The notes beneath the pieces are model-generated. The model had not been told where the DNA came from and searched no databases. It saw only the letters and a program-made list of their open reading frames with translations. From an uncultured Nitrososphaerota archaeon (GTDB taxonomy: Archaea > Thermoproteota > Nitrososphaeria > Nitrososphaerales > Gagatemarchaeaceae): 64,000 nucleotides of DNA. The stretch spans positions 224,001 to 288,000 of the forward strand of contig CAVRAG010000008.1 in the NCBI GenBank assembly GCA_963718895.1. The letters are read 5' to 3'. Below, piece by piece: positions 5,959 through 28,571 of the stretch (position 1 is the stretch's first letter; every line of letters starts with the position of its first letter). The translations under genes and the position numbers were made by a program.

Positions 5959-6733
5959 CTCTTTACTCCGGGCCACGGGAGCCTACAGGTTCTACGAGAA
6001 CAGGCTGAGCTGGCAGGTCGAGGACGGACCCATTCCGAGTCACATCGGGATCATCCTCGACGGAAACAGGAGGTGGGCCCAGGACCGGAGGTATGCAGTG
6101 GACGTGGGCCATGCCCAGGGCGCCGACGTCGTCGAGAAGCTCCTCGACTGGTGCCACGACCTCGGGATCAAGTCGATAACGCTCTACGTCCTCTCGACGG
6201 AGAACCTGCACAGGACCGTCGAGGAGGTTCAGGAGCTCTTCAGGCTCATCGAGCAGAGGCTGACCAACCTCCTCGAGGACGACCGGATCTACAGCTACCG
6301 GGTCAGGGTGAAGGGGATAGGGAAGTTCGACCTGCTCCCGCAGTCCCTGCTCAGCATCCTACGCGAGGTTGAGGAGAAGACGGCGGCGTACGACGGCCAC
6401 TTCCTCAACATAGCGATAGCCTACGGAGGCAGGGCCGAGATCACGGACGTCGTGAAGTCGATCGCAGAGGACGTGAAGAACGGGACCCTTGCCCCCGAGG
6501 CCATCAGCGAAGAGACTATAGCGGGGAGGCTGTACACCTCACACCTCCCCAACCCCGAACCCGAGCTGATCATAAGGACCTCGGGCGAGGAGAGGATGAG
6601 CGGCTTCCTTCTGTGGCAGGGCGCCTACAGCGAGCTGATCTTCATGGACGTCTATTGGCCCGCGTTTAGAAAAATTGATTTGTTGCGCGCAATACGTACG
6701 TACCAAAAGCGGAAACGAAGGCTAGGTAGATAA
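5942..6733 (+). CDS. uppS: polyprenyl (undecaprenyl-type) diphosphate synthase
   Basis: HIGIILDGNRRWA, LSTENLHR, YGGRAE, IRTSGEERMSGFLLWQ. Confidence 0.95.
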   Translation: MTQVLDSLLRATGAYRFYENRLSWQVEDGPIPSHIGIILDGNRRWAQDRRYAVDVGHAQGADVVEKLLDWCHDLGIKSITLYVLSTENLHRTVEEVQELFRLIEQRLTNLLEDDRIYSYRVRVKGIGKFDLLPQSLLSILREVEEKTAAYDGHFLNIAIAYGGRAEITDVVKSIAEDVKNGTLAPEAISEETIAGRLYTSHLPNPEPELIIRTSGEERMSGFLLWQGAYSELIFMDVYWPAFRKIDLLRAIRTYQKRKRRLGR

Positions 6734-7220
6734 TCAACGCCTGAACAACCTCTGATGTACTCGTCAACTATCCCCCTGTTAACAGGGGGGCCATTCGAGA
6801 TGACAAAATCAGACTCGGCGCCTCTTATCCCGGGCATGAATCCTCTCATCAATCGAAGATAGCCGATGACAGGTTGCCCTCCCTAACTACGAGCCAGGAG
6901 CCCCGAGGTGTTCGCATTGGTTTTTCCAACAGGATAACTCCAGCCAGCTTGATCATGCCTTCATCATACATTTCTATTCTCAGTCGGGGGTACCAATGAT
7001 TGCCCGGTCCCAGTAACGGATGCTCGCGGCCACCAGAAAGATAGACACGCCCTCTGTTGTAACCTATGGTCCCCTCTCCAGCGACAAGTGCGCCAATCCA
7101 AGCGCGTTCCCATTGAGAAAGGTCCTTCACTGCTCGCTTGGCCAAAGCTTCTATCTCAAGAGATTTCCATTCCTAGGTCTTATGAACACCCACGTTCATT
7201 GGATCTCTACTCGAGCCTCT
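6641..7220. mobile_element. low-GC endonuclease cassette inserted in the uppS 3' end, carrying a recoded replacement tail (boundaries approximate)
   Basis: Composition shift, LAGLIDADG ORF, and two copies of the uppS C-terminal coding sequence on either side. Confidence 0.7.
6652..7145 (-). CDS. single-motif LAGLIDADG endonuclease-like protein (frameshift near 6850), C-terminus antisense to the uppS tail
   Basis: WIGALVAGEGTI motif and PRLRIEMYD strand in ORF 6849..7145; continues after a 1-nt shift into ORF 6652..6852; visibly lower GC than flanks. Confidence 0.7.
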
Positions 7221-7289
7221 TTCCGCAAGATAGATCTCCTCCGCGCCCTAAGGACCTACCAGAAGAGGAAGCGCAGGATGGGAAGGTGG
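7195..7289 (+). pseudogene. displaced original 3' end of uppS
   Basis: 7221-7286 encodes FRKIDLLRALRTYQKRKRRMGR in host-type codons; stop position reads TGG; 7195-7220 is an indel-degraded FMDxYWPx. Confidence 0.85.
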
Positions 7290-7295
7290 CGCGGC

Positions 7296-8046
7296 CTAGA
7301 TCAGGTTCACGAGGAAGCCCACCAGGAAGCCGAGGAAGATGCCGATGTAAGTTACTCTCTGCATGGCGTGGTCCGAGTCCCTGAACATGGACTTGAACAT
7401 GGGAAGTATGGCGTAGAGAATCGCTCCTATCGCCAGTCCGTCGAAGAGCACCGTGAACGCGCCCGAGCTATAGAAGTACCCGACGGCGCCGCCGAGGATC
7501 GTCGGCACGCCGCCGACCAAGAAGAAGGTTGCCATCTCCCAACCGTTCCTGTCCGACCGGCCGAGGAAGGGCGACGCGATCGGAAACCCCTCCGTGATGT
7601 TCTGCATCACGAAACCCACGAGCACCACCAGCGCCGCGCCCGAGAACCCGATGCTCACCGCCAGCGCGCCGAAGACTAGACCCTCTGTGAGGTTCTGGAA
7701 TCCTATTCCCGATGCGATGATAAGGGAGGTCTGAGAGGGACCAAGACCGGTCTTCTTCCTGTGCTCGCTGTAGTAGAGTCCCAGGAATCCAATCCCCAGG
7801 GCCGCGGTGAAGATGCCGTCGTAGTAGGGTGAGGACCCGAGCCCATAGAGGGAGCCGTTGTACATTATGGTCGCCGCATTCCCCCAGACGTCCCCTAGGA
7901 GGAAGATCGAGTATCCCAATCGCGACAGCGAGCAGCGCCTTGTTGGCCATGTCGCTAGTGCGCTTGCGGAGGACTATCGGGAGCGAGATGAGGATCGAGA
8001 GGCCCATCACCGCCGAGAGCAGGATGGTCTCGAGGAAGCTCACCAT
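7296..8046 (-). CDS. ZIP family metal transporter (frameshift near 7910)
   Basis: GIGFQNLTEGL and GFVMQNITEGF (ZIP HN-x-x-EG motifs with Q for H), AIGAILY. Confidence 0.8.
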
Positions 8047-8057
8047 AAGCCATGCCC

Positions 8058-8119
8058 ATAACATATGTTATATTTAATATGAACGATGTTAACGATAACA
8101 ACTAACAGTGTTATTAACA
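8058..8119. promoter_or_regulatory. putative operator array between ZIP and HTH-ferritin regulator
   Basis: Perfect palindrome ATAACATATGTTAT (8058-8071), TGTTA-N4-TAACA (8087-8100), TAACA-G-TGTTA (8103-8113), TAACA (8115-8119). Confidence 0.65.
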
Positions 8120-8153
8120 GGGGACACGGATTGATTGCGGGGAAGCTGGCGTA

Positions 8154-8927
8154 ATGGCGATGAATCAGGCCGGGATCAAGAGCGAAGAGAGGCTCATACC
8201 GATAATCAGGGCGGCGCTTGCGAAGAGATTGGCTTCGGAGGGGTTCAAGGTGAAGGAGATCGCTGGAGCCCTTAACGTGACCCCCGCCGCCGTGACCCAG
8301 TACGTCAAGAGCAGGCGAGGAACGAACATAATGTCCGTTGGGAAGGTCGATCAGATCGTAGACCCGCTCGCCGACAAGGTCGCCAAGCGCATCCGTTCAG
8401 GCTCGGGCGGGATAAAGACCGTGGAGCTGCTCGAGACGGCGCGCCAGGTCATGGTCATGAACGCCGGCAAGGAGATAGTCGCCAAAGGTCCGGAGGGCCC
8501 TGAAAAGCATCGCTCGCTCGAGCTACTTAGGGCGCGGCTCCAGCTCGAGCTGGGGGCGGCGGAGAACTACCTCGAACTGGCCAACAAAACCGGTGACGAC
8601 CACACCAAGCTCCTTCTCAGGATGATAGCCTCGGACAGCATCAGGCATGCGGACGTCGTCTCGCAGGTGATCTCCTGGCTGGAGGCGGAGAGCGGGCCCG
8701 GGTTCGAGCTCCCTGGGGAGGAGCTGCTGAAGAGCATGCTGGCCCTCGAGGACTCGGCGAACGAGGTCAACCTGCGCGAGAGCATCAAGGTCGGTCACCC
8801 TGTGGCTCGCCTCCTCCTTGAGTGGATAGACATGGACGAGGCGAAGCACGGCAAGATGGTGCTGGGGATGCTCGGTCTGAACAACGCGCGCCCAGCCGGG
8901 CGCGGCGCCCGACCTAGGCGTGGCTAG
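8154..8927 (+). CDS. transcriptional regulator, N-terminal HTH fused to ferritin/rubrerythrin-like domain
   Basis: VKEIAGALNVTPAAVTQYVKSRRG HTH; C-terminal E..A...Y, DSIRH, LED, DEAKH four-helix-bundle motifs. Confidence 0.75.
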   Translation: MAMNQAGIKSEERLIPIIRAALAKRLASEGFKVKEIAGALNVTPAAVTQYVKSRRGTNIMSVGKVDQIVDPLADKVAKRIRSGSGGIKTVELLETARQVMVMNAGKEIVAKGPEGPEKHRSLELLRARLQLELGAAENYLELANKTGDDHTKLLLRMIASDSIRHADVVSQVISWLEAESGPGFELPGEELLKSMLALEDSANEVNLRESIKVGHPVARLLLEWIDMDEAKHGKMVLGMLGLNNARPAGRGARPRRG

Positions 8928-8986
8928 CGCTGCCCGACTCGGCCAAGACAAACCATTATAATCTCTCAGCTGAAGAGGTCGATGAA

Positions 8987-9514
8987 ATGAAGATAATCCT
9001 GGGCACCTTCAAGGACAACGCCGACGAACTGGCCGAGTTCCTTGAGCCGAGAGTGGGCGCCAAACCGCAGGTGAGTGGAGCGGAACTTACCGTCGAGGAC
9101 GATTCGTTGAAGAAGACCGTGAAGGTACGGCACGTCAAGACGTACGTAAAGCGGTTCCTCTGGAAGAAGGGAGAGAGGAAGAACTACAGGGTCCTGGTCC
9201 AGGGCAAGGAGCTGAGACTGATAGAGCTCGAACCGTCCGAGGCCGAGGAGGAGGAGAGGAAGAAGCTGGAGGAGAAGGAGAAGGAACGGGCAAAGAAGGA
9301 GGAATCCGTCAAGGAGGAGGAGCCCGTCGTGAAGCAGCAGGAACCTGAGACGAAGAAGGAGGAAGTCCCGCAGCCGGAGGAGGCGAAGCCCGAGCCTGCC
9401 GCCTTGGAGGAAGAAGAGAAGCCCGCCGCCCCGAAGGAGACTAGGAAGAGGGCGAAGAAGTCGACGAAGAAGAGCGCCGAGAAAGCGCAGCCTGCCGCTT
9501 CTCCCTCGACCTGA
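8987..9514 (+). CDS. ribosomal protein eL22-like with long charged C-terminal tail
   Basis: LAEFLEPRV...VRHVKTYVKRFLWKKGERKNYRVL resembles the eL22 core as I recall it (FLxERI...KRYLKYLTKKYLKKxxLRDWLRVV). Confidence 0.65.
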   Translation: MKIILGTFKDNADELAEFLEPRVGAKPQVSGAELTVEDDSLKKTVKVRHVKTYVKRFLWKKGERKNYRVLVQGKELRLIELEPSEAEEEERKKLEEKEKERAKKEESVKEEEPVVKQQEPETKKEEVPQPEEAKPEPAALEEEEKPAAPKETRKRAKKSTKKSAEKAQPAASPST

Positions 9515-9866
9515 CGCGTCCCAGCTCCGCGAGGTAAGCCCGCAGGGAAGTCCTCGCCCCCCGCAACGACTCGAGCCCTTCAGCCGTCTTCCGTGACTGA
9601 ACCAAGACGCCTGCTCGCCTCATCTGCTCGAGGGCGGTTTCGAGGAACTCCTCAGGCCGCTTGGACCTAGGCAGCTCCGTGAAGGCGCCGGGCCTCTCTG
9701 TGCCGAGCCTCAGCTTCAGTTTGGCCACAGCCCTCTCGGTCCTGGCGTAGATGACCCAGATGTCATTCTCCGCCGGCGAACCTCCGACTGCGCTGCCGAG
9801 CGAATCGGTGAGAGCGGCAATCTCGACCTTCAGGTCGTCCGATTGCAACCGGGCTCTTCGCCGCAT
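9441..9866 (-). CDS. hypothetical helical protein
   Basis: 141-aa ORF with plausible composition, fills the gap between neighbours. Confidence 0.5.
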   Translation of the reverse strand: MRRRARLQSDDLKVEIAALTDSLGSAVGGSPAENDIWVIYARTERAVAKLKLRLGTERPGAFTELPRSKRPEEFLETALEQMRRAGVLVQSRKTAEGLESLRGARTSLRAYLAELGRVRSREKRQAALSRRSSSSTSSPSS

Positions 9867-10011
9867 GTTGTAGTCGTGCCGGAGACCCCGGCTATTTTGA
9901 TTTTCCAGTCAGAACCTTATTAAATCCCAGAACCGACGGGCGGCCAAGTTGCCCCCCAGGAAGGAAGCTCGCAGGATAATCGGAGGGTGTTTTGTTAAGC
10001 TTGGCGGGCTG

Positions 10012-10632
10012 ATGGAACTAGGGCGTCTGGCCTGTGCCCTTGAGCGGGCGCAACTTCCGATCTTCATGTCGAAGGTAGGCCAGAAGACGAGGCTATCGGT
10101 CCAGAACGACCTGTTCATGGGGGTGCCGATCTTCTACTATGCAGAAGCAGACAAGGGAGGGGAGTTCCTTGCATACAGGAACGCGGGCGAGATAGAGGAG
10201 GTGCAGCTCGTCGAGTCTGCGTCGACCCCGTCCTACATCTACTCGCCGATCATCCACGTACTGAAGATGCCCAGCATCCTCGAGCACAAGCGGGAGTTCC
10301 ACCAAAAGTTCCTGGCCGCAGAGGTCGCAGACCTCGCTTCCCTCGTGAAGCTGGCCACCTACAAGATGCTCTACGAGGAGCCGCCCCTTCCGCTGTACTC
10401 CTTCAAGAACGGGACGAGCTGGATAGTGGGTTCATTCGCCCGTCTGGACGACTTCGAGGAGGCGTCGCTGTTCTTCTACACGAGGATGAAGGAGGAGCCC
10501 TCCATGGGGTTCGTGAAGTACTCGCCGGCGAACATAGGCGACACGAGCTTCAGCAAGAGGACAGACGAGCACGGCTTCTACTACGTCAAGGTCATCAAGC
10601 TGGCGGAGAAACACCCGCTGGTGGAGTTCTAG
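10012..10632 (+). CDS. hypothetical protein
   Basis: Host-like codon usage, globular composition, abuts pyrF. Confidence 0.7.
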   Translation: MELGRLACALERAQLPIFMSKVGQKTRLSVQNDLFMGVPIFYYAEADKGGEFLAYRNAGEIEEVQLVESASTPSYIYSPIIHVLKMPSILEHKREFHQKFLAAEVADLASLVKLATYKMLYEEPPLPLYSFKNGTSWIVGSFARLDDFEEASLFFYTRMKEEPSMGFVKYSPANIGDTSFSKRTDEHGFYYVKVIKLAEKHPLVEF

Positions 10633-11366
10633 TGCGGTTCGGGGACAGGCTGAGAGACTCCTCGAAGAAACACGGAAGCAGGATCATCCTTGCCCTGGAC
10701 GTCACGGGACCCCAGGCCACGAGGGCGGCCAGGGCCGAGTCGCTGCTCCGCGAGCTCGGCGACTCCCTGGCTGGCGTCAAGGTCAACTTCCAGCTCCTCC
10801 TCCCTCAGGGACTGCAGGGTCTGGCGGGGGTGGTCAAGGTCTGCTCCGAGAAGGGGATTCCCCTGATCGCGGACATCAAGCTCAACGACATCGAGTCGAC
10901 GAACCTCGAGACGGTAGAGATGCTGTTCGGCGGCGGATTCGATGCGGTGATCGCCAACCCGTTCACCGGCCACAACGAGGGGCTCTCCAAGGTGATAGCG
11001 AGGGCCAAGGCGCTCGATAAGGGCGTGATACTCCTGGTGTACATGAGCCATGCCGGCGCCGAGGAGGGGTACGGGCTCAAGGTCGGCGAGGAGCCGATGT
11101 ACATGCTCTTCGCAAGGAAGGTGCGGGACTGGGAGGCAGACGGCGCCATCGTCTCGGCGAAGTCGCTCGACATAATCAGGGAGGTGAGGAGGACCCTCGA
11201 CCCCTGGCAGGTCATCCTGAGCCCAGGCATCGGCTTTCAGGGTGGCGAGGCGGATCGGGCGGTCAAGGCAGGGACCGACTTCGCCATCGTCGGCCGTTCG
11301 ATAATAGACGCCAAGACCCCCCGGGCGATGCTCCGGGAGCTCAACCTCTCGGTCACCGATTCCTGA
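10632..11366 (+). CDS. pyrF: orotidine 5'-phosphate decarboxylase
   Basis: ILALD, DIKLNDI, SPGIGFQGG, IVGRSI. Confidence 0.9.
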   Translation: MRFGDRLRDSSKKHGSRIILALDVTGPQATRAARAESLLRELGDSLAGVKVNFQLLLPQGLQGLAGVVKVCSEKGIPLIADIKLNDIESTNLETVEMLFGGGFDAVIANPFTGHNEGLSKVIARAKALDKGVILLVYMSHAGAEEGYGLKVGEEPMYMLFARKVRDWEADGAIVSAKSLDIIREVRRTLDPWQVILSPGIGFQGGEADRAVKAGTDFAIVGRSIIDAKTPRAMLRELNLSVTDS

Positions 11367-11775
11367 GCGAGTCTTCGGCTGCGCGGAGGAGCATCGTCGA
11401 GTTCGCGTAGGTGACCACCTTGAGCGCCTCCTCGTGGCCGAGCCAGGTGTAGTCCCTGTGCTCGAACGAGAGGACGACCTTGTCCTCCTTCGACTCTGCC
11501 AGGAAGAAGGTTACTTCCTTGTGGACCGTCCTCCCGTCCCGCTTGTAGTAGTACTCGATGACCTTCCTGAACCCTGCGACGGGGACGATGTTAACCAGTC
11601 CGGTCTCCTCGCGCACCTCGCGGAGCATGGTCTGCTCGGGAGTTTCGCCTTCCTCGATGTTCCCCTTCGGGAAGTCCCAGTGTCCGGCGGGATACTTCAA
11701 GAGGAGGTAGCGTCTGCCCGCCGGCGTCTCGTGGAAGACGAGGGCCCCGGCCGAGCGCTCCTCGGGGTGGCTCAA
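11353..11775 (-). CDS. NUDIX hydrolase (Ap4A hydrolase-like)
   Basis: HWDFPKGNIEEGETPEQTMLREVREETGL Nudix box. Confidence 0.9.
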   Translation of the reverse strand: MSHPEERSAGALVFHETPAGRRYLLLKYPAGHWDFPKGNIEEGETPEQTMLREVREETGLVNIVPVAGFRKVIEYYYKRDGRTVHKEVTFFLAESKEDKVVLSFEHRDYTWLGHEEALKVVTYANSTMLLRAAEDSLRNR

Positions 11776-11815
11776 GGGCTCCGCCCTGATCCGGCCGCGC
11801 GGGCGCCCACGGGGG

Positions 11816-14568: not shown

Positions 14569-15582
14569 TTACTTCCTCTTGGAAGTCTCTTCCGAGGGGT
14601 CGTCGATGCCCCTCTCGTTCAGCATGAAGACGGCGTCCCGCTCCGGGTGGTACGGGCTGTCGATCATCCTGGCGATCCGGTTCTTGCCTGCCTTCCTCAG
14701 GTAGATCCTGTAGGTGCTGGTGTGCGCGACCACGTGACCCCCGGTCGCCCTCGTCGGGTCCCCGAAGAAGCTGTCCGGCGCGGACTGCACCTGGTTGGTC
14801 ATGACGACGGCGATGTTGTAGACCTCGGCCGTGCGGAGGAGGTTGTGCATGAAGCGGTTCAGCCTCTGCTGCCTCTCTGCCAGTGTGCCCCGGCCGAGGA
14901 ACTCGGCGCGGTAGTGGGCGACCGCGCTGTCGACTATCACGAGTTTCACCTTGTGCTTCTCTATCATCCTCCCGAGGTCCTTCACGATGAGCTCCTGGTG
15001 CGCGCTGTTGTAGGCACGCGCGACCATGATCCTCGAGAGGATGTCCTCGGGATTGAACCCGCGGTTCTGGGCGATCTCCATGATCCTCTCCGGGCGGAAC
15101 GTCCCCTCGGTGTCGATGTAGACGACACCGCCGTCCAGGCCTCCTTCGGGTATGGGCTGCTGCACGGTGCAGCACAGGGTGTGGCAGATCTGCGTCTTCC
15201 CCGCGCCGAACTCCCCGTAGAACTCCGTGATCGCCCAGGTCTCGATGCCACCGCCCAGGAGGTCGTCGATGTTCTTGGACCCCGTGCTTATCCTGGTTAT
15301 GTTCCTTCTCCGGGTGAGAAGGTCCGTAGCGCTGACGAAGTCGGGCTCCAGCCGGCCCAGCTCGACGAGCCTCTTCCTCGCCTTGTTGTTGACCTCGACA
15401 GATTTCGTGATGTCCCAGTCTGTCGCGTCGGCAATCTCCGCGGGCCCGGAGGTCGCGAGATCGAGAATCGTGAATATCCCAGCTTCGTTCAGCTTCTGCT
15501 TGGTCACAGCGCCGACCCCGGCAATCGTGGTCACGTCCAGCTCTTCGTCGACCGCGTCTTCAGCCTTCTCTTCCTCTACCAT
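14569..15582 (-). CDS. radA: DNA repair and recombination protein RadA
   Basis: [37 protein letters not shown]. Confidence 0.97.
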
Positions 15583-15633: not shown

Positions 15634-16936
15634 CTAGGGGGAGACACGGGTCGTCGTACGTGGAAACAGGCTCGCCCCCCGAATGTGCTTGAGCCCCGCG
15701 AGCCAGCGGGTCACCCTCTCGACGCCCATCCCGAACCCCGCGTGGTCTGGCATCCCGTACTTCCTGAGGTCAAGGTACCACCCGAACGCTTCGGTGGGCA
15801 GGTCCTGGCTCTTGATCCTCTCCATGAGCACCTCGTAGCTCGCGATGCGCTGCCCGCCGGTAGCGAGCTCCCCGAACCCTTCGGGGGCTATCAGGTCCGC
15901 GGACTTCGTCACCTTCGGCCTATCGGGATATGTCATGTGGTAGAAGCTTCTTGCCGAGAGCGGGTAGTCGGTTATGAAGAACGGGCGCTCCCGCGAGAGG
16001 GAGACCAGCCTCTCCACCTCTGTCGGCACGTCCTCCCCCCACTCGAAAGGCAGCCCCTTCTTCTCGGCGAAGTCTCGCACCTCGTCGTAGGGGACCCTCT
16101 CGAACGGGAGCGGAGGTTCCGAGATGACCCGTCCGAGCAGCTTCAGCTCGTCCGAACGGTTCTGGATGACCCTCCTCGTGATGGAGGAGAGGAGGCCCTC
16201 CTGGAGGGACATGTTGTCGGACTGGTCTGCGAAGGCCTGCTCCGCCTCGATCATCCAGAACTCCGTAAGGTGCTTGGGGGTCCTCGACTTCTCGGCCCGG
16301 AACGCGGGCTGGTAGATCCAGACCTTCTCGAGCGCCGCCAGGGCCGCCTCCTCGTAGAACTGGGCGCTCTGGCTGAGGAAGACCTTCTTCCCGAAGTAGT
16401 CGACGCCGAAGAGCGTCGAGCCGCCCTCGACCGCCGCCTGGACGAAGCTGGGCGCGCTGATGAGTGTGAACCCGTTTTCCCTGAAATAGTCGAAGGTAGC
16501 GCAGACGACCTCGTTCCGGATCTTCATGGTCGCGGCGACCTTCCTGCTCCTGATGCTCAGATGGCGGATGTCGTACAGGTAGGACGCGGACTTTGCGGCT
16601 GTCTTGGTAATCGGCCAGGTCTCCGCCTTCGAGAGGACAGAGAAGCCGCGGACTGAGATCTCCTTTCCACCGGGAGCGCGCGCCGTCAACCCGGACCACC
16701 CCATCCACGGAGACCGCCGACTCCTTCGTCGCGGACTTTATCGCGTCCATCGAATCGGGGGGAGTGACCCCTCCCTTTGCAGAGACCTGGATGTACCCTG
16801 TCCCGTCCCTCACGACCGCGAAGACCAGCCCTCCGATGGCGTTCTTCGTGGCTATCCAGCCGTTGATCTCGACCCTCTCGCCGGCCTCGGATCCGAAGAC
16901 CTGCCGGATCCGCAGACGCCTCGCCTGGCTCTCCAC
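15634..16936 (-). CDS. asnS: asparagine-tRNA ligase (frameshift near 16685)
   Basis: OB-fold VRDGTGYIQ, FRAEKSRTPKHLTEFW, EGFGELATGGQR, HAGFGMGVER. Confidence 0.88.
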
Positions 16937-20657: not shown

Positions 20658-20712
20658 TAGCCTATCGTGTCCCTAGACCTCGCCGACGGCCGCTGGGTGA
20701 TGATTTAAACAA

Positions 20713-21573
20713 TTATCCGGTGCGGACCTTGGCTGACCCCACCCCCTGCGGCACCCTGCACGAGGCCTCGTAGGACCGCTTTACGGACAGCGCGGTGAAC
20801 AGGGGGCCCAGGAGGAGCACCGGTATGGTGATGGCGACGAAGAGAAGCTGGTAGGGCGCGAGCGCGATCGCGAGGGTGGTGCCCACCCCGCCCAGCGAGC
20901 TGGCCAGGAACAGCCCCGCGCAGGTCGGGCAGGCCGTGAAGAGGCCGACCACGGCCCCGGAGCTCAGGAGCCAGCGACCGCCCATTGGGAACGACGACTG
21001 CCTGAAGGCGTAGTAGCTGAGTGCGACGTTGAACCCCACGAGAATCGGGACGACGAACAGGAACAACAGGCTGAGAGGGACGAGGACCATTCCCAGGTGG
21101 AGCGCCGGAGACAGGTAGACTATGAGCTTCGGTACCGTCCCGGTGTCCCCGCAGCAGGTGAGGTAGGTCCAGCTGGGCTGCGACACCCCGTAGACCTGCG
21201 CGAAGTTCACGGTCGGCTGGTAGGTGATGATGCTCGAGACGAAGGCGTAGACGAGCCCGTAGGCGATGGCTATCGCTGCGCCCAGCTTGAACGCCGTCCT
21301 CGAGCCGAGGGCCTCGCCGAGCACGGAAGGGATCGTCCGGCTCCCCTCTCCCCGCCACGTGAGGAGGACCTTGTAGACGAGATACAGGCCGAGGACGACC
21401 AGGACCGTCGAGAGGCCCTGGGCCAGATAGAACCCGAGCACGAGCGAGCCCGGGTCCTTCGAGGAGTACCCTATCAGCTCCTGGGTGTCGGACCAGCGGA
21501 ACATGTTGAAGAACGCAATCGCGGCGCCGACGACCAGAGAGACCAGACCTGTCAGCAGGGCCTTCGAAGCCAT
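20713..21573 (-). CDS. multi-pass membrane protein with CC and CPTC motifs
   Basis: Hydrophobic 286 aa; TCCGD and FTACPTCAG. Confidence 0.7.
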   Translation of the reverse strand: MASKALLTGLVSLVVGAAIAFFNMFRWSDTQELIGYSSKDPGSLVLGFYLAQGLSTVLVVLGLYLVYKVLLTWRGEGSRTIPSVLGEALGSRTAFKLGAAIAIAYGLVYAFVSSIITYQPTVNFAQVYGVSQPSWTYLTCCGDTGTVPKLIVYLSPALHLGMVLVPLSLLFLFVVPILVGFNVALSYYAFRQSSFPMGGRWLLSSGAVVGLFTACPTCAGLFLASSLGGVGTTLAIALAPYQLLFVAITIPVLLLGPLFTALSVKRSYEASCRVPQGVGSAKVRTG

Positions 21574-21635
21574 CGATGACCTCGTTGCGAAGCGTCCGAG
21601 CAGGGCTTAAATCCGTTCCGACGGGTTCGCCTCAA

Positions 21636-22931
21636 TCACGGGGGACCTTCGGCAAGGGGCACGGGCTGCTGCTTCAGCTTGATGACAGGTCCGAGTACGA
21701 TCCAGACACCGGCCAGAGCCGCTATGATTCCACCCAAGACCATGGTGCTGACCACTCCAAAGGAGGGCAGGGATGCGAGGGTGCCGCCGATTATGGCCCC
21801 TACGGGGATTGTCCCCCAGACGATCACCCGCATGGTCGCGTTCATCCGGCCCTGAAGTCGGTCCGGAGTGATCGCCTGCCTGAGGCTGACCTGGCTGATA
21901 TTGTAGATCGGCGAGCTCGTGCCAATGACGAAGGCCACGACGGCCGGCAGCAAGAACGGAGAACCGTAGCTCGCGAGGGGGTAGAGGACGGCGAGACCCG
22001 CCATGCTGACCGAGACCGCGAGACCCCGGCCGAACCCCAGCGCGGTCGTGAACCTCTTTGCGACAAGCGCTCCGACAAGGAACCCTGCTGCCCCGATGGT
22101 CCCGAGAAGACCCCACTCGAAGTAGGAGTAATGAAGACGTCCGAAGACGAACGCGAGGATTGCCGGCCCCACTATGTATGAGCCAAGATTGCTGGTGGCA
22201 GTGCATCCCGCTATTCTTGTCAGAAGGGGGTTTCCGAGCACGATGTGTATCCCTTCCCTCATCTCTCCGAAGAAGTCGGGTTGCGGATCTCCGGGCCTTG
22301 GCACCTTCCTGGGCTCTGGAGTCCGGATGTCGAGCAGAGCAACGGCGGCAGCGAGATAGCCGACGGCATCGGCGGCGCAGGTCAGTGCGGCACCGACTAT
22401 CTTCGGGGATATGACATCGGTCAGCGCCTGAAACGCCCCTCCAGCGATGCTGGGACCGACCACAGTAGCGCCCGAGGCGCTGAGCTGCAGTTTCTGGTTC
22501 CCCTCGATGAGGTCCTTCCTTTCGATCAGAATCGGAAGGTACGCCTGGTAGGAGATGTCGAAGAAGACCGAGAACACCCCGTTCACCAGTGCGATCACGT
22601 AGAGCTGGTCGAGGGCGAGCACCCCGAAGACGGCAGCGAGGGGGATCGTCATGAGGGAAGCCATCCTCCCCAAATTGCAGATGACCATGATCTTCTTCTT
22701 CCGGAACCTGTCGACCCAGACGCCCACGAAGAGCCCTAGTAGCGGATAAGGTAGAATCGCCAAAGCGGTAAGGAGGCCGACGCCGAAAGCCCCGGCGTTC
22801 AGCAGAGAATAGGCCAACACAGGAAGGGCGTACGTGCTGAAGTTGCTCCCGAATGAGCTGACGGTCTCGGAGAACCAGAGCCTCGTGAAGTCCCTGTGGC
22901 GCCAGAGGTTCCCGCCGAGGCTGAGCTTCAA
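21636..22931 (-). CDS. MFS transporter
   Basis: DFTRLWFSETVS, GVWVDRFRKK, RQAITPDRLQGR. Confidence 0.9.
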   Translation of the reverse strand: MKLSLGGNLWRHRDFTRLWFSETVSSFGSNFSTYALPVLAYSLLNAGAFGVGLLTALAILPYPLLGLFVGVWVDRFRKKKIMVICNLGRMASLMTIPLAAVFGVLALDQLYVIALVNGVFSVFFDISYQAYLPILIERKDLIEGNQKLQLSASGATVVGPSIAGGAFQALTDVISPKIVGAALTCAADAVGYLAAAVALLDIRTPEPRKVPRPGDPQPDFFGEMREGIHIVLGNPLLTRIAGCTATSNLGSYIVGPAILAFVFGRLHYSYFEWGLLGTIGAAGFLVGALVAKRFTTALGFGRGLAVSVSMAGLAVLYPLASYGSPFLLPAVVAFVIGTSSPIYNISQVSLRQAITPDRLQGRMNATMRVIVWGTIPVGAIIGGTLASLPSFGVVSTMVLGGIIAALAGVWIVLGPVIKLKQQPVPLAEGPP

Positions 22932-23062
22932 CGAGGCCGGGCTCTTTGGCTATGGCTATTATTCTTGCGAGCCGGGCTGGATTCTGGCGGAGTCAGGGCG
23001 AGTCCGGCCGAGGGCTCTGTCGAGAGGAGGGGTGCCTATATGCGGACTTGGAGATATTAGTC

Positions 23063-24007
23063 ATGGGACCTCCGAGACACTACAGGCACAGGACGCTCGA
23101 GGAGCGATTGAAGATTCACGCTGAGGTGGCGACGCTTCGCGGTTCGGGCATGACCGTGAAGGAGGTCGCCGACGCGCTTGGAATCAGCAGGCGTGACGTC
23201 AGTTACTGGACGAGGATGAACAAGCCGTCTCGCACCGTCTACAATCCGGACCTCACACCGAGACCTGAGCTCGCGTACCTCGTGGGAGCCTATCTCGGGG
23301 ATGGAAGGACTGCCGGACCGAAGGACAAGAAAGTGAGGTTCAACCTCGCCGACCAGGAGTTCGCGGATCAGCTTAACGAGCTAGTTGCCAAGGTCATCGG
23401 CGCCAGACTGAAGACGGTCCCCGTGGAGGAGGGGTTCCACTCTGTGAGCTACGACTGCGCGGTCCTCTACGATTTTCTCCAACAACCCCTTTCCGCCCAG
23501 ATACCTCTCGCCGAGTCATTCCCGGCAGAGTTTCTTCGCGGATTCTTCGATGCTGAGGGATACGCGTCTCAGACTATCTGGCCAGGGTCGAATGCCCTGA
23601 CAGCCATATGTGTAGGAGCAGCTAACTGCAACCTTGACTACCTCGACCTTGCCCGTCGATTGCTAGCGACCCTCGGGATACCTTCTGAAATCAGGATGAC
23701 GAACAAGGCAGGACAACCCATGGAGATACGCGGCCGAACCTACATCCGCAAGAGGAATGTGTTTCATGTGCGGATCAATGAGGCGGACTACGTCGAGAAG
23801 TTTCGCGATCGAGTGGGTTTCTCCGTTCCCGAGAAGAAGCAGAAACTCGCGGACCTCGTTGCAATAGTGTCCATTCCCGACGAATGGGATCGATACGACC
23901 GCTTCACTGACTTGTATGAGAAGAAGAAGCGCAAATGGATGCGACGAGGCGACGCGAGCAGCAGCAACCATTCTAGCGCTAGCGCTGAAAATAATTCTGC
24001 GCGGTAA
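23063..24007 (+). CDS. free-standing LAGLIDADG endonuclease with N-terminal HTH
   Basis: MTVKEVADALGISRRDVSYW HTH; YLVGAYLGDG and FLRGFFDAEG; no intein splicing motifs seen. Confidence 0.85.
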   Translation: MGPPRHYRHRTLEERLKIHAEVATLRGSGMTVKEVADALGISRRDVSYWTRMNKPSRTVYNPDLTPRPELAYLVGAYLGDGRTAGPKDKKVRFNLADQEFADQLNELVAKVIGARLKTVPVEEGFHSVSYDCAVLYDFLQQPLSAQIPLAESFPAEFLRGFFDAEGYASQTIWPGSNALTAICVGAANCNLDYLDLARRLLATLGIPSEIRMTNKAGQPMEIRGRTYIRKRNVFHVRINEADYVEKFRDRVGFSVPEKKQKLADLVAIVSIPDEWDRYDRFTDLYEKKKRKWMRRGDASSSNHSSASAENNSAR

Positions 24008-24027
24008 ATTATTCCGATAGGAATAAG

Positions 24028-24170
24028 TCCCGCGGGTCGGATTCGAGCCGACGACACTCCGGTTTCTGTGGCCTGAGTAGGCTGGACGGGTCAGCCGATG
24101 GCCGACCACTACAGCCGGAAGCTCTTGGTTCCGCCTTTTTAGGGGACCTACCAGGCTGAGCTACCGCGGG
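24028..24170 (-). tRNA. tRNA-Tyr(GUA) with two introns (24124-24147 at 22/23; 24064-24108 at 37/38)
   Basis: CCCGCGG/CCGCGGG acceptor stem, A discriminator, TCCGG/CCGGA anticodon stem with CT-GTA-G, GTCGG/CCGAC T stem; bulge-helix-bulge-type junctions at both introns. Confidence 0.92.
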
Positions 24171-24196
24171 ACGTGACCACGCCCGGCACGCATATC

Positions 24197-25243
24197 TTAA
24201 GCGTTTCCGGCGAGATGCGACTCGGATGAGTTTCGGCCCATGGAGATTGGCAGTCCAAGCGCCAGAGCGACGCGCCTGGCGTCGTCCGGCGACGATGCGC
24301 CCTTCACGAGCATCCCTCCGGACCTGAAAAGCGACACCTCGAGGTCCCCGACCCTCGTCATCAGTATCGAGTCGCCCATGCGCTTGGTCCCGTCAACAAG
24401 GCGCCTCGAGAGGCGGTCGAAGGACCGGGGAGGGAACGCGCCGCTCACGTAGAGCTCGTTGCCGCCGCAGAGCTCGACGACCCTGCTGCCGCGGCGGGGA
24501 TGCCGGCCAGACCCGCAGGCCCCGCAGTCGGGACGCCGCTCGAACCGGACCGTGTGCGACTCCATCCTCCGTCCGTCGAAGACGAGCATCGCACCCAGCA
24601 GCCCCGACTCCATCCCCGAGAGGATCTTCACCGCCTCGATCGCCCCGACCGACCCTATGTAGGAGGTGAGCGCGCCCAGCACGCCCACGACCTCGCAGGC
24701 GGGATAGTCCTCGTCCCTCGCCCCCGGGAAGACGCATTCGAAGCAGGCGGTCCTCGGGGACCAGAAGACCCCGGCCGAGGCCTCCCAGCCCAGTCCGCCG
24801 GTGTGGAGCAGCGGTATCCCCCGCGCGACGCAGGCCGCGTTGAGCGCGTACCTCCCCGCGAAGTTGTCGAGGCAGTCGACCGCTATGTCGGCATCGCGAA
24901 TCAGGCGCGGGGCGTTCCCGGTCCCGAGGCTCGCGGCGTGATAGTCCACCACAAGCCCCGGCACCCGCTCCCTCAGGTACCTGGAGACGACCTCTGCCTT
25001 GGACATCCCGACGTCGGCAAGCGTGTAGGTCGGCTGTCTGTGGAGGTTCTCGGCGGAGACGACGTCACGGTCGACGAGGGTCAGCCTCCCGACCCCGGCG
25101 ATGGCGAGGTTGACCGCCACGGAGGACCCGGTGCCTCCGAGGCCAACCACCACCGCGTGGGACCCGGCGAGGCGCCCCTGCCCCTCCCCTCCGAACCCTT
25201 CCAGGGCGATCTGCCTCGAGAAATACAGGCGGTCGTAGGACAA
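24197..25243 (-). CDS. HesA/MoeB/ThiF family E1-like adenylyltransferase
   Basis: FSRQI, VGLGGTG, DRDVVSAENLHRQ, CFEC and CGAC. Confidence 0.9.
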   Translation of the reverse strand: MSYDRLYFSRQIALEGFGGEGQGRLAGSHAVVVGLGGTGSSVAVNLAIAGVGRLTLVDRDVVSAENLHRQPTYTLADVGMSKAEVVSRYLRERVPGLVVDYHAASLGTGNAPRLIRDADIAVDCLDNFAGRYALNAACVARGIPLLHTGGLGWEASAGVFWSPRTACFECVFPGARDEDYPACEVVGVLGALTSYIGSVGAIEAVKILSGMESGLLGAMLVFDGRRMESHTVRFERRPDCGACGSGRHPRRGSRVVELCGGNELYVSGAFPPRSFDRLSRRLVDGTKRMGDSILMTRVGDLEVSLFRSGGMLVKGASSPDDARRVALALGLPISMGRNSSESHLAGNA

Positions 25244-25301
25244 CTGGGAAAAAAGCGAATGGAACTGCTTTTAAAGTCCGCGGGCCGGGCGTGACAAGAA
25301 C

Positions 25302-25739
25302 ATGAGCGAGAAGGCGGTCAAGAAGGTCCCTGCCAAGAAGAAGGCTGTCAGGAAGGCTCCGGCCAAGAAGAGAGCGGCCGCGGCCAAGAAGGAGGAGGCG
25401 AAGGAAGGGGCCGCGAAGGAGATCATTGAGCTAACCCCCGCGCCATCGCCGGTCGTCATGGTGAGGCACGAGTACGGCATGCAGGAGAGGGCCGCGCGGG
25501 GATACTCGCTCGGCGAGCTCGCGTCGGCTGGAATAACGTTCGTCGTTGCCAAGGGCATAGGGGTCCCGCTGGACCTCAGGAGGAGGAGCGCGCTGGACGG
25601 CAACGTCGCGCTGCTGAAGGGGTGGTACGTGCCCGCCCCGAAGAAGGCGAAGGTCGCGGCCGCGGAGAAGGAGGAGAAGCCGGCGAAGAAGGCGGCCAAG
25701 AAGCCCAAAAGAGCCGCCAAGGCGAAGAAGGAAGAGTAG
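25302..25739 (+). CDS. rpl13e: ribosomal protein eL13 with Lys/Ala-rich terminal extensions
   Basis: RGYSLGELASAGI...GVPLDLRRRS...NV core. Confidence 0.85.
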   Translation: MSEKAVKKVPAKKKAVRKAPAKKRAAAAKKEEAKEGAAKEIIELTPAPSPVVMVRHEYGMQERAARGYSLGELASAGITFVVAKGIGVPLDLRRRSALDGNVALLKGWYVPAPKKAKVAAAEKEEKPAKKAAKKPKRAAKAKKEE

Positions 25740-25746
25740 CCGTCGG

Positions 25747-26670
25747 TCAGTCCTTCGTCCTTTCGTTGTGAAACAGATACTGCTGGGCGTAGCCAGCGAA
25801 CTCACCGAAGTAAGCGCGGGCGCTCGCCGAGAGGCGGTCGTAGGTCGCCAGCGAGAGGCTCGTCCGGCCCGAGACGTTTGAAGCAAGCCTCTCTCTGAGG
25901 TCCTCGGCGAAGAGGTGCGGGTAGTAGTCCCCCAGGACCCTCGCTACCCAGACGTCTATGGGGAACGCCGAGTCCTTGTCGCAGGAGAAGAGCAGGACGC
26001 AGTCGGCGACCTTGGGCCCGATGCCCATCAGCGTCTTCCTCTCAGGGAGCTCCTCGATCAGCAGGTCCCTGGCCCTGGGGTAGTCGAAGAGGCGCAGCTC
26101 GTCCAGGTTCACCCTGCCCAGATAGACGGACTCGGCTATGGACTTCACGAACTTCGCCCTGTACCCGAGGCCGCATGCGACCAGGTCTGGGAGCTCGGCC
26201 TCGGCGAGCCTCTCGGGGCTGGGGAAGAGCGAGTAGGTCTCTCCCTCGAAGGCGACGGGCTCGCCAAGCCGCTTGCAGACGTTCGAGACCATCCCCCTAA
26301 TCCGGGGGATGTTGGAGTTCGTGGCTATGGCGAAGGAGATGAGGCACTCCCAGACCTCCTGCTTCAGCAGGCGGAGCCCGTAGAACTTCTGGACCGCTTC
26401 GGTGATCCTCTCGTCCTTCATTATCGAGGCGAGGATCCGCTCGAGGTCCACTCCTAGCCCCAGGTAGTTGTAGACGGTGCGGCTGTTGAGGGCGTCCGAG
26501 GACGAGACGCAGACGAGGGCCGCGCCCTCCTGCTTGAGCTTGACGACGCCTGGGCCAAGGACCCCGTACCACCACTCGCCCCTCTCGTTCCAGCGGAAGG
26601 ACTGGCCGGACTCCAGCGTGTAGCGGAGGTTGAAGGGGAGGCCCTCGGTGTTGATGGTGAACTCGCCCAT
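25747..26670 (-). CDS. 8-oxoguanine DNA glycosylase (OGG1-like, HhH-GPD)
   Basis: TLESGQSFRW, GLRLLKQEVWECLISF, GLGYRAK, GIGPKVADC, FPIDVW, AGYAQQYLF. Confidence 0.9.
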   Translation of the reverse strand: MGEFTINTEGLPFNLRYTLESGQSFRWNERGEWWYGVLGPGVVKLKQEGAALVCVSSSDALNSRTVYNYLGLGVDLERILASIMKDERITEAVQKFYGLRLLKQEVWECLISFAIATNSNIPRIRGMVSNVCKRLGEPVAFEGETYSLFPSPERLAEAELPDLVACGLGYRAKFVKSIAESVYLGRVNLDELRLFDYPRARDLLIEELPERKTLMGIGPKVADCVLLFSCDKDSAFPIDVWVARVLGDYYPHLFAEDLRERLASNVSGRTSLSLATYDRLSASARAYFGEFAGYAQQYLFHNERTKD

Positions 26671-26747
26671 CCGCCCTTCTCGAGGGTGGACTCTCTATAA
26701 AAGAATCCAAGCATGGCTCGAGAAGGCTCAGCCCAGACAGTCGTGAT

Positions 26748-27926
26748 GTGGATTGGCGCTTAAATGCGGTGCGAAGTTCGAGTCCGACGACTCTTGGAGG
26801 GACTGGCCTGACGGAGGCATCCGACGCTACACCAAGCGGCAAGGAAGGAGCACAGCAGACCTCGACGGACTTCACCGAGGATGAAAGGGAAGTCCTGGAT
26901 TTTCTGGCGAACTCGAAGAGGGTCGACCTCAGGTGGCTGAACGAGGACAGGAAAACGAAGATCAAGACGGTAATCGACGGGCTGCACAACGGCAAGAAGC
27001 TCTCGCTCCTGCAGATCTCGAAAGAGGTCGGGAGGTCCTACATGGCGATCTGGGGCCTGTGCCGAGCGCTGGAGATTCGGACGAGGAGCGTGGCCGAGGC
27101 CCAGAGCAACTCCGCCGAGTCCAGGTCGAAGCACAAGCGGAGGCCGTTCGGCGGGACCGAGGAGGATCGAGCGTACATGCTCGGGTTCAAGAACGGCGAC
27201 CTGACGGCGTGGCAGGTGAGCGGGACAGCGGTGATGGTAACGTCGACAACAACGCACCCCGCGTTCGCGGAGCTCTTCCGCGAGCTCTTCCGAGAATATG
27301 GGCACGTCTACGAGTACCCGATGTACGAGGAGGGGAAGGGATACAAATGGAAGCTCGCGGTGAGGCTCGACAACAGCTTCAGGTTCCTTCTAAAACCGGC
27401 CGTCGAAGCGGTCCAGGAGCTCTCGGCAGAGAGGTCGACGTACCTCAGTTGGCTCGCGGGTCTAGTCGATAGCGACGGGAACATATACGTTTCAGGAGGT
27501 CGCGGCTCTCCAAGGATACGCGTTGGCATTTACAACAGTGATGTGCCTCTCCTGAAGTCAATCATCACGGAGAGCAGAAAGATCCAATATGATTTCGACG
27601 GACCGTACCTCTTGAAGGAGAAAGGTACCGTTACTCCGTTCGGCATTAGGTACACTAGGGATCTCTGGCATATCGATGTCCAGCAGACCTGGTCGGCGCA
27701 GCGATTACTCCTTGAGCTCCCGATCAGACACGCTGAGAAACTTCGCCGCAAGTCGCTAGGGTTGCAGGTAGGCCGCCGACCTTGGAGCGAGATTGAAGCG
27801 GAGTTCCTGGAACTCAGAAAGGCGATACGGAGAGAAGTTGACGAGTTCCTTGCCGAGGCCGAGGAGCGCTACAGGAACAATCACGGATTTCCGGGCGACA
27901 GCACAAGTACTGAAGATCGCACCTAG
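26748..27926 (+). CDS. free-standing LAGLIDADG endonuclease with N-terminal HTH (true start may be CTG near 26808)
   Basis: LSLLQISKEVGRSYMAIW HTH; YMLGFKNGD and WLAGLVDSDG motifs; IGIYNSD-like strand, LPIRHAEK. Confidence 0.85.
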   Translation: MDWRLNAVRSSSPTTLGGTGLTEASDATPSGKEGAQQTSTDFTEDEREVLDFLANSKRVDLRWLNEDRKTKIKTVIDGLHNGKKLSLLQISKEVGRSYMAIWGLCRALEIRTRSVAEAQSNSAESRSKHKRRPFGGTEEDRAYMLGFKNGDLTAWQVSGTAVMVTSTTTHPAFAELFRELFREYGHVYEYPMYEEGKGYKWKLAVRLDNSFRFLLKPAVEAVQELSAERSTYLSWLAGLVDSDGNIYVSGGRGSPRIRVGIYNSDVPLLKSIITESRKIQYDFDGPYLLKEKGTVTPFGIRYTRDLWHIDVQQTWSAQRLLLELPIRHAEKLRRKSLGLQVGRRPWSEIEAEFLELRKAIRREVDEFLAEAEERYRNNHGFPGDSTSTEDRT

Positions 27927-27959
27927 ACCTCAGCGGAAGATAGGAAGTGAGGAGTGGAG

Positions 27960-28571
27960 CTACTTCGATGCCTTCTGGAAGCGCTTCCCCACGTCTTCCC
28001 AGTTGACGACGTTCCACCAGGCCTCTACGTACTTGCCCCTGTCGTTCAGGTACTGGAGATAATATGCATGTTCCCAGACGTCACACCCGAGCAGTATCGG
28101 CAGCTCCGGCAGGTGCATGAAGTTCTGCTTCTCGACCTGGGTCAGGACGAGGGAGTCGATCTCGTGGTCGTAGAGCAGGAGCGCCCACCCAGAACCCTCG
28201 ACCGCCTTCGCGGCGTCGCTGAACTGGGCCTTGAACTTGTCGAAGGACCCGAAGTCCTGGGTGATCTTGTCGGCGAGCTTCCCGGTCGGCGCGCCGCCTC
28301 CTCCCTTCCCCGCGGCGGCCATGTTCATCCAGAAGATAGAGTGCAGCTTGTGTCCGCCGACGTTGAAGGAGAGGTCCCTGAGGGTCCCCTTGATGTCGAT
28401 CTGGAGGGTCCCTGCACGGGCCTTCTCGAGCTTGTCGAGGGCCGCGTTCGCACCCGTCACGTAGGCGTTGTGGTGCTTGTCGTGGTGCAGCGTCATGATC
28501 TGCTTCGAGATATACGGCTCGAGCGCTTCATAGGGATATGGTAACGGTGGCAGCGTGTAGGTCTTTGCCAT
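27960..28571 (-). CDS. sod: Fe/Mn superoxide dismutase
   Basis: LPYPYEALEP, HHDKHH, GGHKLHSIFW, DVWEHAYY. Confidence 0.97.
   Translation of the reverse strand: MAKTYTLPPLPYPYEALEPYISKQIMTLHHDKHHNAYVTGANAALDKLEKARAGTLQIDIKGTLRDLSFNVGGHKLHSIFWMNMAAAGKGGGGAPTGKLADKITQDFGSFDKFKAQFSDAAKAVEGSGWALLLYDHEIDSLVLTQVEKQNFMHLPELPILLGCDVWEHAYYLQYLNDRGKYVEAWWNVVNWEDVGKRFQKASK

Follow-up and report, generated by a model that had tools for sequence, protein, structure and literature searches.

Free-standing homing genes are familiar from T4-like phages, in which genes of the Seg and Mob types spread by intronless homing (PMC2790892; PMC2330249; PMC2988022), and such genes are generally confined to intergenic targets (PMC13619312). 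Such free-standing genes are mostly known from phages, according to the authors of a study on Haloferax glycosylation islands, which hold one free-standing LAGLIDADG_2 gene (pfam03161) and for which homing-driven gene conversion was proposed (PMC5867893). LAGLIDADG genes also reside in group I introns of archaeal rRNA genes, Thaumarchaeota included (PMC6125680). The yeast HO enzyme is an intein-derived free-standing endonuclease, I-DmoI has the active-site lysines K42/K43 and K120/K130, and WhiA has no catalytic acids, bears its helix-turn-helix (HTH) at the C-terminus and is universal in its lineage (PMC3384342). Here we analyse 64,000 nucleotides from an uncultured Nitrososphaerota archaeon (GCA_963718895.1, contig CAVRAG010000008.1, positions 224,001 to 288,000; hereafter the window), in which two free-standing LAGLIDADG genes, HEG_A and HEG_B, face the 3' ends of tRNA-Tyr and of the superoxide dismutase gene sod, and the remnant of a third element, cassette C, faces that of uppS. 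In our view they likely form part of a set of free-standing homing genes of the LAGLIDADG type which move by intronless homing, with every lineage bound to a single site behind a conserved gene.

The window corresponds to G000:C8:224001-288000, G000 being a 3.13-Mb metagenome-assembled genome (MAG) of 11 contigs with a GC content of about 63%, from a Nitrososphaerales-type archaeon of soil or peat. It was searched against 40 relatives, designated here by G numbers as well, of which 22 belong to the same genus, two to sister genera and 16 to other families of the order. Coordinates are given in Table 1.

Both intact genes encode what is predicted to be a monomeric double-motif LAGLIDADG endonuclease preceded by an HTH-like domain. 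HEG_A likely starts at the ATG at 23063, inside an open reading frame (ORF) spanning 22946-24007(+), since its orthologues begin there, and it matches the Pfam family LAGLIDADG_3 at 3.6e-15 along with several HTH families below cut-off, while the LAGLIDADG_3 match of HEG_B is weak and lies under the cut-off (E 0.0031). In the AlphaFold2 models, both built from alignments, the mean predicted local distance difference test score (pLDDT) is 88.4 for HEG_A and 82.5 for HEG_B, whose residues 1-39 score below 50; these first ~39 residues probably lie outside the real protein. The N-terminal region is helical and HTH-like in both models, forming three helices in HEG_A. Foldseek ranks I-Tsp061I first for either model, followed by the TliVMA intein, PI-PfuI and I-DmoI for HEG_A and by the archaeal monomeric LAGLIDADG enzymes I-DmoI and PI-PfuI for HEG_B, and I-AniI is likewise among the structural neighbours. 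The catalytic residues are kept: G79-D80-G81 and D163-A164-E165-G166, which contain the catalytic acids D80 and E165, are invariant in 37/37 homologues of HEG_A, and in 15/15 relatives of HEG_B and of the related lineage D the residue D151 is invariant and the acid of the second motif is D or E. All 37 HEG_A homologues come from metagenomes or Thaumarchaeota MAGs, their best name being 'intein-encoded DNA endonuclease-like'.

Neither protein contains a Hint, Intein_splicing or intein domain in Pfam, whereas true inteins elsewhere in G000 do lie in splicing contexts of this kind; the NCBIfam matches of HEG_A are all to intein-containing proteins and all far below cut-off, and the flanks of both genes are intergenic. 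HEG_A ends 20 bp from the 3' end of tRNA-Tyr and HEG_B 33 bp from the sod stop codon, in both cases convergently, and a phmmer search with one protein misses the other. The original prediction, which had been made from the letters of the window, thus described these two genes accurately: it held them to be free-standing and devoid of intein motifs, to be no near-copies of each other and to converge on their neighbours across precisely these gaps, and it gave two of its three genes an N-terminal HTH.

Each gene keeps to its site across the relatives. HEG_A-like genes occur in 21/24 genomes of the family and HEG_B-like genes in 19/24 (E up to 0.001), usually in several copies and often with stops; outside the family the counts are 1/16 and 0/16. 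Around the two loci the gene order is conserved (orf20713, MFS transporter, [HEG_A], tRNA-Tyr, ThiF, L13e, OGG, [HEG_B], sod, transaldolase). Wherever the neighbourhood of a copy is visible, HEG_A converges on tRNA-Tyr (7/7: G000, G001, G011, G007, G003, G013 with one stop, and G023 of another genus; a broken copy in G002 stops at a contig end) and HEG_B on sod (7/7: G000, G001, G011, G005, G023, and broken copies in G021 and G002; the copy of G003 lies at a contig end). Cassette C converges on uppS in 4/4 genomes (G000, G010, G002, G007), and two further lineages behave in the same way, lineage D (HEG_D) facing nuoD in 11/11 genomes and lineage E (HEG_E) facing pcna in 8/8. Endonuclease lineages therefore track the identity of the host gene, a test that the original prediction had proposed. 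At the nuoD and pcna sites the endonucleases are 44-77% identical across relatives and the host proteins 71-97%.

These sites are also often empty. HEG_A is absent from a contiguous site in 14/21 genomes with an aligned tRNA, and HEG_B in 11/18. Between tRNA-Tyr and orf20713, G003 has 977 bp where its sister genome G021 has 32 bp, a clean indel set in flanks 83-90% identical, and the empty sites of G004, G015, G007, G010 and G005 hold no endonuclease remnants detectable by tblastn (E up to 0.1). Stops or frameshifts interrupt many of the endonuclease copies that do exist. Patchy presence at orthologous sites, which the original prediction anticipated, is accordingly a property of both loci.

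The history of the genes departs from that of their flanks. A tree of OGG, tail-less sod and transaldolase unites G001 with G011 (98/98) and places G000 as their sister (99/99). The flank proteins of G001 and G011 are 92-96% identical, whereas their HEG_A proteins share 55% and their HEG_B proteins 61% identity; HEG_A is 81% identical between G000 and G001, and HEG_B 75% between G000 and G011. An approximately unbiased (AU) test rejects the G001+G011 clade for HEG_A (p 1e-4) and for HEG_B (p 0.0165). Faster protein evolution is no explanation, since the synonymous divergence (dS) between G001 and G011 is 2.7 for HEG_A, as against 0.15 for the MFS gene, 0.39 for OGG and 0.39 for sod. The endonuclease proteins are under purifying selection all the same, for the ratio of nonsynonymous to synonymous divergence (dN/dS) is 0.10-0.33 where dS is unsaturated.

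Sliding windows locate the replaced tracts. At locus A the identity between G001 and G011 is 0.97-1.0 in the MFS gene and in tRNA-Tyr and 0.3-0.7 across the roughly 1.1-kb cassette. At locus B the high identity, near 0.9, extends over OGG and ~450 bp at the start of HEG_B; from there a trough of 0.4-0.55 takes in the C-terminal LAGLIDADG domain together with the spacer and the final 40-80 nt of sod, beyond which 0.9 is reached again. Thus, one DNA-reading half of HEG_B has been swapped together with the tail of sod. As judged from such alignments, the host flank was presumably co-converted with the endonuclease gene at sod and at uppS.

At uppS the tail of the host gene tells the same tale. 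The UppS protein is conserved to its end, with the last ~80 nt written in AT-rich synonymous codons; the GC content at third codon positions (GC3) of the last 20 codons is 0.40 versus about 0.85 upstream. This tail is near-identical in the cassette-bearing genomes G000, G010 and G007 (less so in G002). Identity between G000 and G001 falls from about 0.9 to 0.72-0.48 in the tail, though G000 is otherwise nearer to G001, and the tail of G000 matches those of G007 and G010 at 0.93-0.95. Homologous remnants of cassette C face uppS in G010, G002 and G007, none of them intact. In the ESM Atlas, an intact 137-aa paralogue of the element, found in G010, has small clusters of LAGLIDADG_1 as its neighbours (score 0.93, 199/256 features). 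It is on this lead and on a LAGLIDADG-like motif that the assignment of cassette C draws, and with moderate confidence we regard the element as what decay has left of a small, single-motif relative. In the source genome the remnant has a GC3 of 0.53 and yields no Pfam or NCBIfam match, and a sequence-profile search of PDB returned nothing relevant for it. Of the three LAGLIDADG genes originally proposed, two are therefore intact, and the third, drawn at 6652-7145(-) as overlapping uppS, is no single ORF: its intact 98-aa part does not overlap uppS and is followed by a stretch full of stops.

The corresponding anomaly in sod is a 36-nt AT-rich patch. Among nine HEG_B-free genomes with the common form of the gene it is the most conserved of 192 windows (1.11 mismatches to consensus versus a median of 3.78), while in six HEG_B-bearing genomes it has 6-16 mismatches, including Y-to-F and W-to-L changes. 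This comparison is suggestive, and suggestive only, of a conserved target whose sequence has changed in alleles that hold a cassette or once held one. We take the patch as a candidate for the region recognised by the enzyme and for the seat of immunity.

HEG_A, HEG_B and cassette C are part of a larger set. G000 contains about nine full-length free-standing HTH/LAGLIDADG genes, about five fragments and at least nine intein-borne copies; the iterative hidden Markov model census drifted into inteins, so that free-standing genes were set apart from them by Pfam. GC3 is 0.60-0.78 in the endonuclease genes (0.68 in HEG_A, 0.74 in HEG_B), as opposed to 0.8-0.92 in the native host genes. The downstream neighbour is convergent at 11/14 loci versus a background of 0.42 taken from crude GC3-based gene calls (binomial p = 0.0065), which bears out the expected excess of convergent orientation. 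The convergent neighbours are tRNA-Tyr, sod, uppS, nuoD, pcna, tRNA-Cys, a 71-aa ORF followed by L7Ae, a methylmalonyl-CoA mutase fragment, an ABC-2 permease, a glycoside hydrolase and a 74-aa ORF. The statement that three such genes in 22 kb imply many more was overstated, given about nine full-length genes and five fragments in 3.13 Mb. The broader idea, that of a family of splice-free homing elements lying antisense behind conserved genes, gains from site fidelity, patchiness, replacement and the co-variation of tails with cassettes; the family assignment at uppS is weak, and one of three supposed neighbour anomalies, a C at position 54 of tRNA-Tyr, lends it nothing. All 21 aligned genomes of the family have that C, whether or not they carry HEG_A, and it is therefore no local anomaly and unrelated to the cassette; the recoded uppS tail and the sod patch are the anomalies that stand.

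How might such cassettes spread? Five lineages are each paired with one site in the intergenic DNA immediately beyond the 3' end of a host gene (A with tRNA-Tyr, B with sod, C with uppS, D with nuoD and E with pcna), their genes pointing back at the host gene. When cassette-bearing and cassette-free DNA meet, the enzyme would cut the cassette-free allele in or near the 3' end of the host gene, and repair from the cassette-bearing allele would copy the cassette of roughly 1-1.3 kb along with the adjoining tail of the host gene. The synonymous or conservative changes in the copied tail would guard against re-cutting, and the enzyme probably reads a longer DNA site by virtue of its N-terminal HTH-like domain. 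Once fixed, a cassette would decay, perhaps as seen in the uppS remnant and in the broken copies of G002, G013 and G021, and then be lost, as in G007 and G010. A vacated site could be re-invaded by a divergent allele, which would account for G001 versus G011. It is tempting to go further and to see a chromosome-wide guild of at least five gene-drive cassettes, antisense at the 3' ends of housekeeping genes, that invade, decay, are lost and invade anew, crossing species boundaries and swapping individual DNA-reading domains, such as the C-terminal half of HEG_B. We hold this extended version more loosely, as a prospect slightly short of even.

Several observations weigh against intronless homing as the explanation. 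Cleavage, the position of the target, the immunity of the recoded tail and the route of DNA between cells are steps that we infer, and none of the analyses brought out a way in which cells of this lineage might exchange DNA. That a second genus (G023) has A as well as B would also fit ancient presence followed by many losses. The genomes compared are kin and mostly incomplete MAGs, G000 itself having a completeness of 80.5% and a contamination of 5.4%, and the clade submitted to the AU test, albeit defined from the flanks, was named after the identity table had been seen. Three of the 14 loci are tandem, and the gene calls are crude. As to the tails, the sod and uppS tails co-vary with their cassettes, as expected of adjacent-gene anomalies; within the genome, the percentiles of AT-recoding for the seven convergent protein-coding neighbours (7.6, 19, 22, 26, 32, 40 and 72) are weak and suggestive only. 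The variant sod patch occurs also in the HEG_B-free genomes G007 (11 mismatches) and G010 (5), a comparison confounded by phylogeny, and among the 192 windows the divergence of the patch ranks only 7-71 in the genomes that carry HEG_B. Finally, the cassette C remnant aligns with the HEG_A profile at an hhalign probability of 0.4%, and its LAGLIDADG membership was not borne out by that comparison.

The main rival is that the cassettes are passive cargo, moved by ordinary homologous recombination between conserved flanks, with an endonuclease that neither cuts the empty allele nor drives the spread and that might serve another purpose or none. Recombination and replacement are what the comparisons directly reveal, whereas cleavage is a step we infer, and ordinary recombination does account for mosaics; the tail of sod in G010, which is G000-like in its 5' part and like that of the distant clade in its 3' part, is a mosaic without any cassette. 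However, passive transport does not explain why each of five separate lineages should hold to a single site and a single orientation, why the cassettes contain the endonuclease gene alone, or why the catalytic residues are invariant and dN/dS is low despite frequent loss. Moreover, the replaced tract ends in the tail of the host gene beside the cassette, which is where conversion initiated by a break would start. We therefore regard passive cargo as unlikely, while giving it more weight than the other alternatives.

It is also conceivable that the genes are domesticated regulators in the manner of WhiA, with an HTH and an inactive LAGLIDADG scaffold, fixed and vertically inherited to control the neighbouring gene. 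An HTH-like domain is indeed fused to a LAGLIDADG core, WhiA is among the structural matches (rank 43 for HEG_A, ranks 40 and 45 for HEG_B), and A and B occupy the same sites in a second genus. Yet the catalytic acids that WhiA has lost (PMC3384342) are invariant here, the HTH is N-terminal rather than C-terminal, and the genes are patchy, often pseudogenised and missing from complete close relatives, with trees incongruent with their flanks and a dS 7-18 times higher. The original prediction had named fixed, WhiA-like regulators as the outcome that would undo it, and such a role now appears very unlikely. Slightly less probable still is that these are defence or exclusion nucleases cutting foreign DNA that carries homologues of the host genes. 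Such a role has been raised for the free-standing LAGLIDADG gene of Haloferax (PMC5867893), and three IMG/VR contigs hold distant relatives of HEG_A (23-27% identity); relatives of HEG_B were not found in the IMG/VR viral contigs, and no viral vector is therefore identified by these searches. Defence would leave unexplained the fidelity to a site beside the presumed target, the co-inheritance of recoded tails and the frequent decay. Homing by free-standing endonucleases thus remains the reading we favour over all three.

Table 1. Positions in the window of the endonuclease genes, their cassettes, the host genes and neighbouring genes (aa, amino acids; a dot marks features without strand).
Feature	Position	Strand	Evidence and remarks
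uppS (undecaprenyl diphosphate synthase family), host gene of cassette C	5762-6733	+	Pfam Prenyltransf 6.4e-74; orthologues in 37/41 genomes
AT-recoded 3' tail of uppS, inherited with cassette C	6650-6733	+	nucleotide identity, GC3
Cassette C remnant, convergent on uppS	6652-7172	-	98-aa ORF 6849-7145 with LAGLIDADG-like motif, then stop-riddled stretch
RadA/Rad51 recombinase	14569-15582	-
Class II aminoacyl-tRNA synthetase (D/K/N type)	15634-16704	-
MFS transporter	21636-22931	-
Cassette A, limits versus the empty site of G010	22934-24018	.	blastn homology blocks; 1085 bp here versus 225 unrelated bp in G010
HEG_A: HTH-like N-terminal three-helix domain and double-motif LAGLIDADG endonuclease (predicted)	23063-24007	+	Pfam, AlphaFold2, Foldseek
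tRNA-Tyr(GTA), host gene of cassette A	24028-24170	-	read by eye; fold z = -4.05; ARAGORN after intron removal
tRNA-Tyr anticodon-loop intron	about 24064-24108	-	45 nt
tRNA-Tyr D-arm intron	about 24125-24148	-	24 nt
Cassette B, limits versus the empty site of G010	26702-27990	.	1289 bp here versus 66 unrelated bp; takes in the last 30 nt of sod
HEG_B: helical HTH-like N-terminal region and double-motif LAGLIDADG endonuclease (predicted)	26748-27926	+	weak Pfam, AlphaFold2, Foldseek
sod (Fe/Mn superoxide dismutase), host gene of cassette B	27960-28571	-	Pfam Sod_Fe_N 6.4e-33, Sod_Fe_C 2.7e-37
sod patch, AT-rich; candidate recognition/immunity region	28041-28076	-	36 nt encoding WEHAYYLQYLND (WEHAYYLQYW/LND); window comparison

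The host gene of cassette A is unusual in its own right. tRNA-Tyr is kept in 38/41 genomes and carries two introns, one in the D arm and one in the anticodon loop. In the unspliced window no tRNA is called by ARAGORN, nor by Rfam at the gathering cut-off or at E up to 10, because of these two introns; once both inserts are removed in silico, ARAGORN calls tRNA-Tyr(GTA), with cloverleaf and anticodon restored. Run with introns allowed on the whole of G000, ARAGORN reports several tRNAs with 'introns' of 335-2128 nt, which are probably artefacts. A third intron of about 22-26 nt lies in the T loop in 14/21 related genomes, and G014 and G020 have no D-arm intron. The sisters G003 (with HEG_A, without the T-loop intron) and G021 (without HEG_A, with the intron) differ in both features; a link between the T-loop intron and the absence of HEG_A was considered and discounted, as phylogeny confounds it and this pair is the sole independent contrast. 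Beside cassette A, the MFS transporter gene has a GC3 of 0.77, below the norm of host genes, and is variable, being absent from the site in the G003/G021 pair and in a more distant clade; its dS between G000 and G001 is 1.0, versus about 0.5 for OGG and sod. Two ordinary-looking genes, for a RadA/Rad51 recombinase and for a class II aminoacyl-tRNA synthetase, lie some 8 kb away from cassette A. The closest paralogue of HEG_A in G000 (G000:C7:269356-270347, locus L132; 274 aa, LAGLIDADG_3 1.5e-10) converges on tRNA-Cys about 97 bp away and is a second tRNA-associated member.

At locus B, G021 (locus L126, G021:C2, 8564-13009) has an insertion of about 4.4 kb, containing three ORFs (418, 570 and 130 aa), between OGG and its broken HEG_B. 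In G010 (locus L109, G010:C3:205000-220000), the alignments of sod, OGG and orf20713 are all split in two by a gap of one residue, which suggests frameshifts or indel errors in the assembly. Among public sequencing runs, no RNA run is listed as containing this DNA. Low-share Logan contigs from peat and soil metagenomes of three studies match 22500-28800 in short, low-depth pieces, none of which bridges cassette A or B or provides a joint across either. One X5 contig leaves the window sequence at 27990, the limit of cassette B; as a single low-depth contig, it is not evidence.

A small single-motif paralogue of the uppS remnant is encoded in G020 (locus L145, G020:C32) by a 179-aa ORF at 1243-1779(-); its terminal peptide resembles what translating a tRNA gene from the opposite strand would give, so that this paralogue, too, may lie against a tRNA. 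The pcna-adjacent endonuclease of lineage E comprises 572 aa in G000 and G007, while G001, G021 and G020 match the C-terminal ~330 residues alone (loci L205-L212), so that the N-terminal region of ~230 residues seems to be variable or optional. G000 is rich in inteins of the LAGLIDADG_3 type, in host frames of 545-1660 aa on contigs C3, C4, C7 and C8 (loci L001, L002, L004, L007, L008, L013-L016, L128, L133 and L135). Hosts confirmed by Pfam include an NAD-dependent epimerase, an NAD synthase and a NuoB-like (Oxidored_q6) protein, the last of which has its intein about 2 kb from the free-standing gene behind nuoD.

If free-standing endonucleases do home in these genomes, this would be the first case of multi-locus intronless homing between cellular archaeal chromosomes, and it would imply frequent DNA exchange between species in a lineage without a described mating or transfer mechanism. 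The cassettes could then serve as a genetic marker for DNA exchange among uncultured soil archaea. Occupied and empty alleles occur as natural pairs for tRNA-Tyr, sod, uppS, nuoD and pcna, all five of them conserved targets, and the compact HTH-LAGLIDADG enzymes, which probably have long and distinct recognition sites, may be of interest for meganuclease engineering. The loci also hold a warning for phylogenetics and annotation, as the 3' ends of marker genes can be mosaic and a multi-intron tRNA-Tyr is invisible to standard tRNA finders.

The literature searched, which did not extend to subscription journals and supplements, yielded no earlier account from Thaumarchaeota or Nitrososphaerales of LAGLIDADG cassettes that stand free, and for archaea overall it yielded the mention in Haloferax alone. 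To speak of an undescribed system, as the original prediction did, is nonetheless too strong, since intronless homing is known from phages and organelles and there is that one report on Haloferax.

A close parallel in behaviour is that of the T4 Seg and Mob genes. Like the cassettes described here, these are lone intergenic genes beside their target, patchy in distribution, with co-conversion of the flank and an added DNA-binding module, and SegB even sits in a tRNA gene cluster, as HEG_A sits beside tRNA-Tyr. The phage enzymes, however, are of the GIY-YIG or HNH type and act during phage co-infection, whereas those described here are of the LAGLIDADG type and lie in cellular chromosomes. Among free-standing phage enzymes, a systematic placement tail-to-tail with the target is not known to us. 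In structure the nearest kin are I-Tsp061I, I-DmoI, PI-PfuI and the TliVMA intein, which share the double-motif monomer and the acidic catalytic pair. Yet the archaeal intron and intein enzymes sit in a splicing element inside their target, while HEG_A and HEG_B lie outside the host gene, on the opposite strand, and have an extra HTH-like domain at the N-terminus. WhiA and the DUF199 family combine a LAGLIDADG scaffold with an HTH as well, but the loss of acids, the C-terminal HTH and the universality of WhiA do not apply here. The Haloferax gene and yeast HO resemble the cassettes in being LAGLIDADG genes outside an intron or intein in a cellular chromosome. HO, unlike the cassettes, is domesticated for mating-type switching, and Haloferax has a single LAGLIDADG_2 gene in a variable island with no stated target, as against at least five lineages with turnover at the 3' ends of housekeeping genes. 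What would set the present system apart from those known is thus LAGLIDADG-type intronless homing at several conserved archaeal sites, with antisense placement and an N-terminal HTH.

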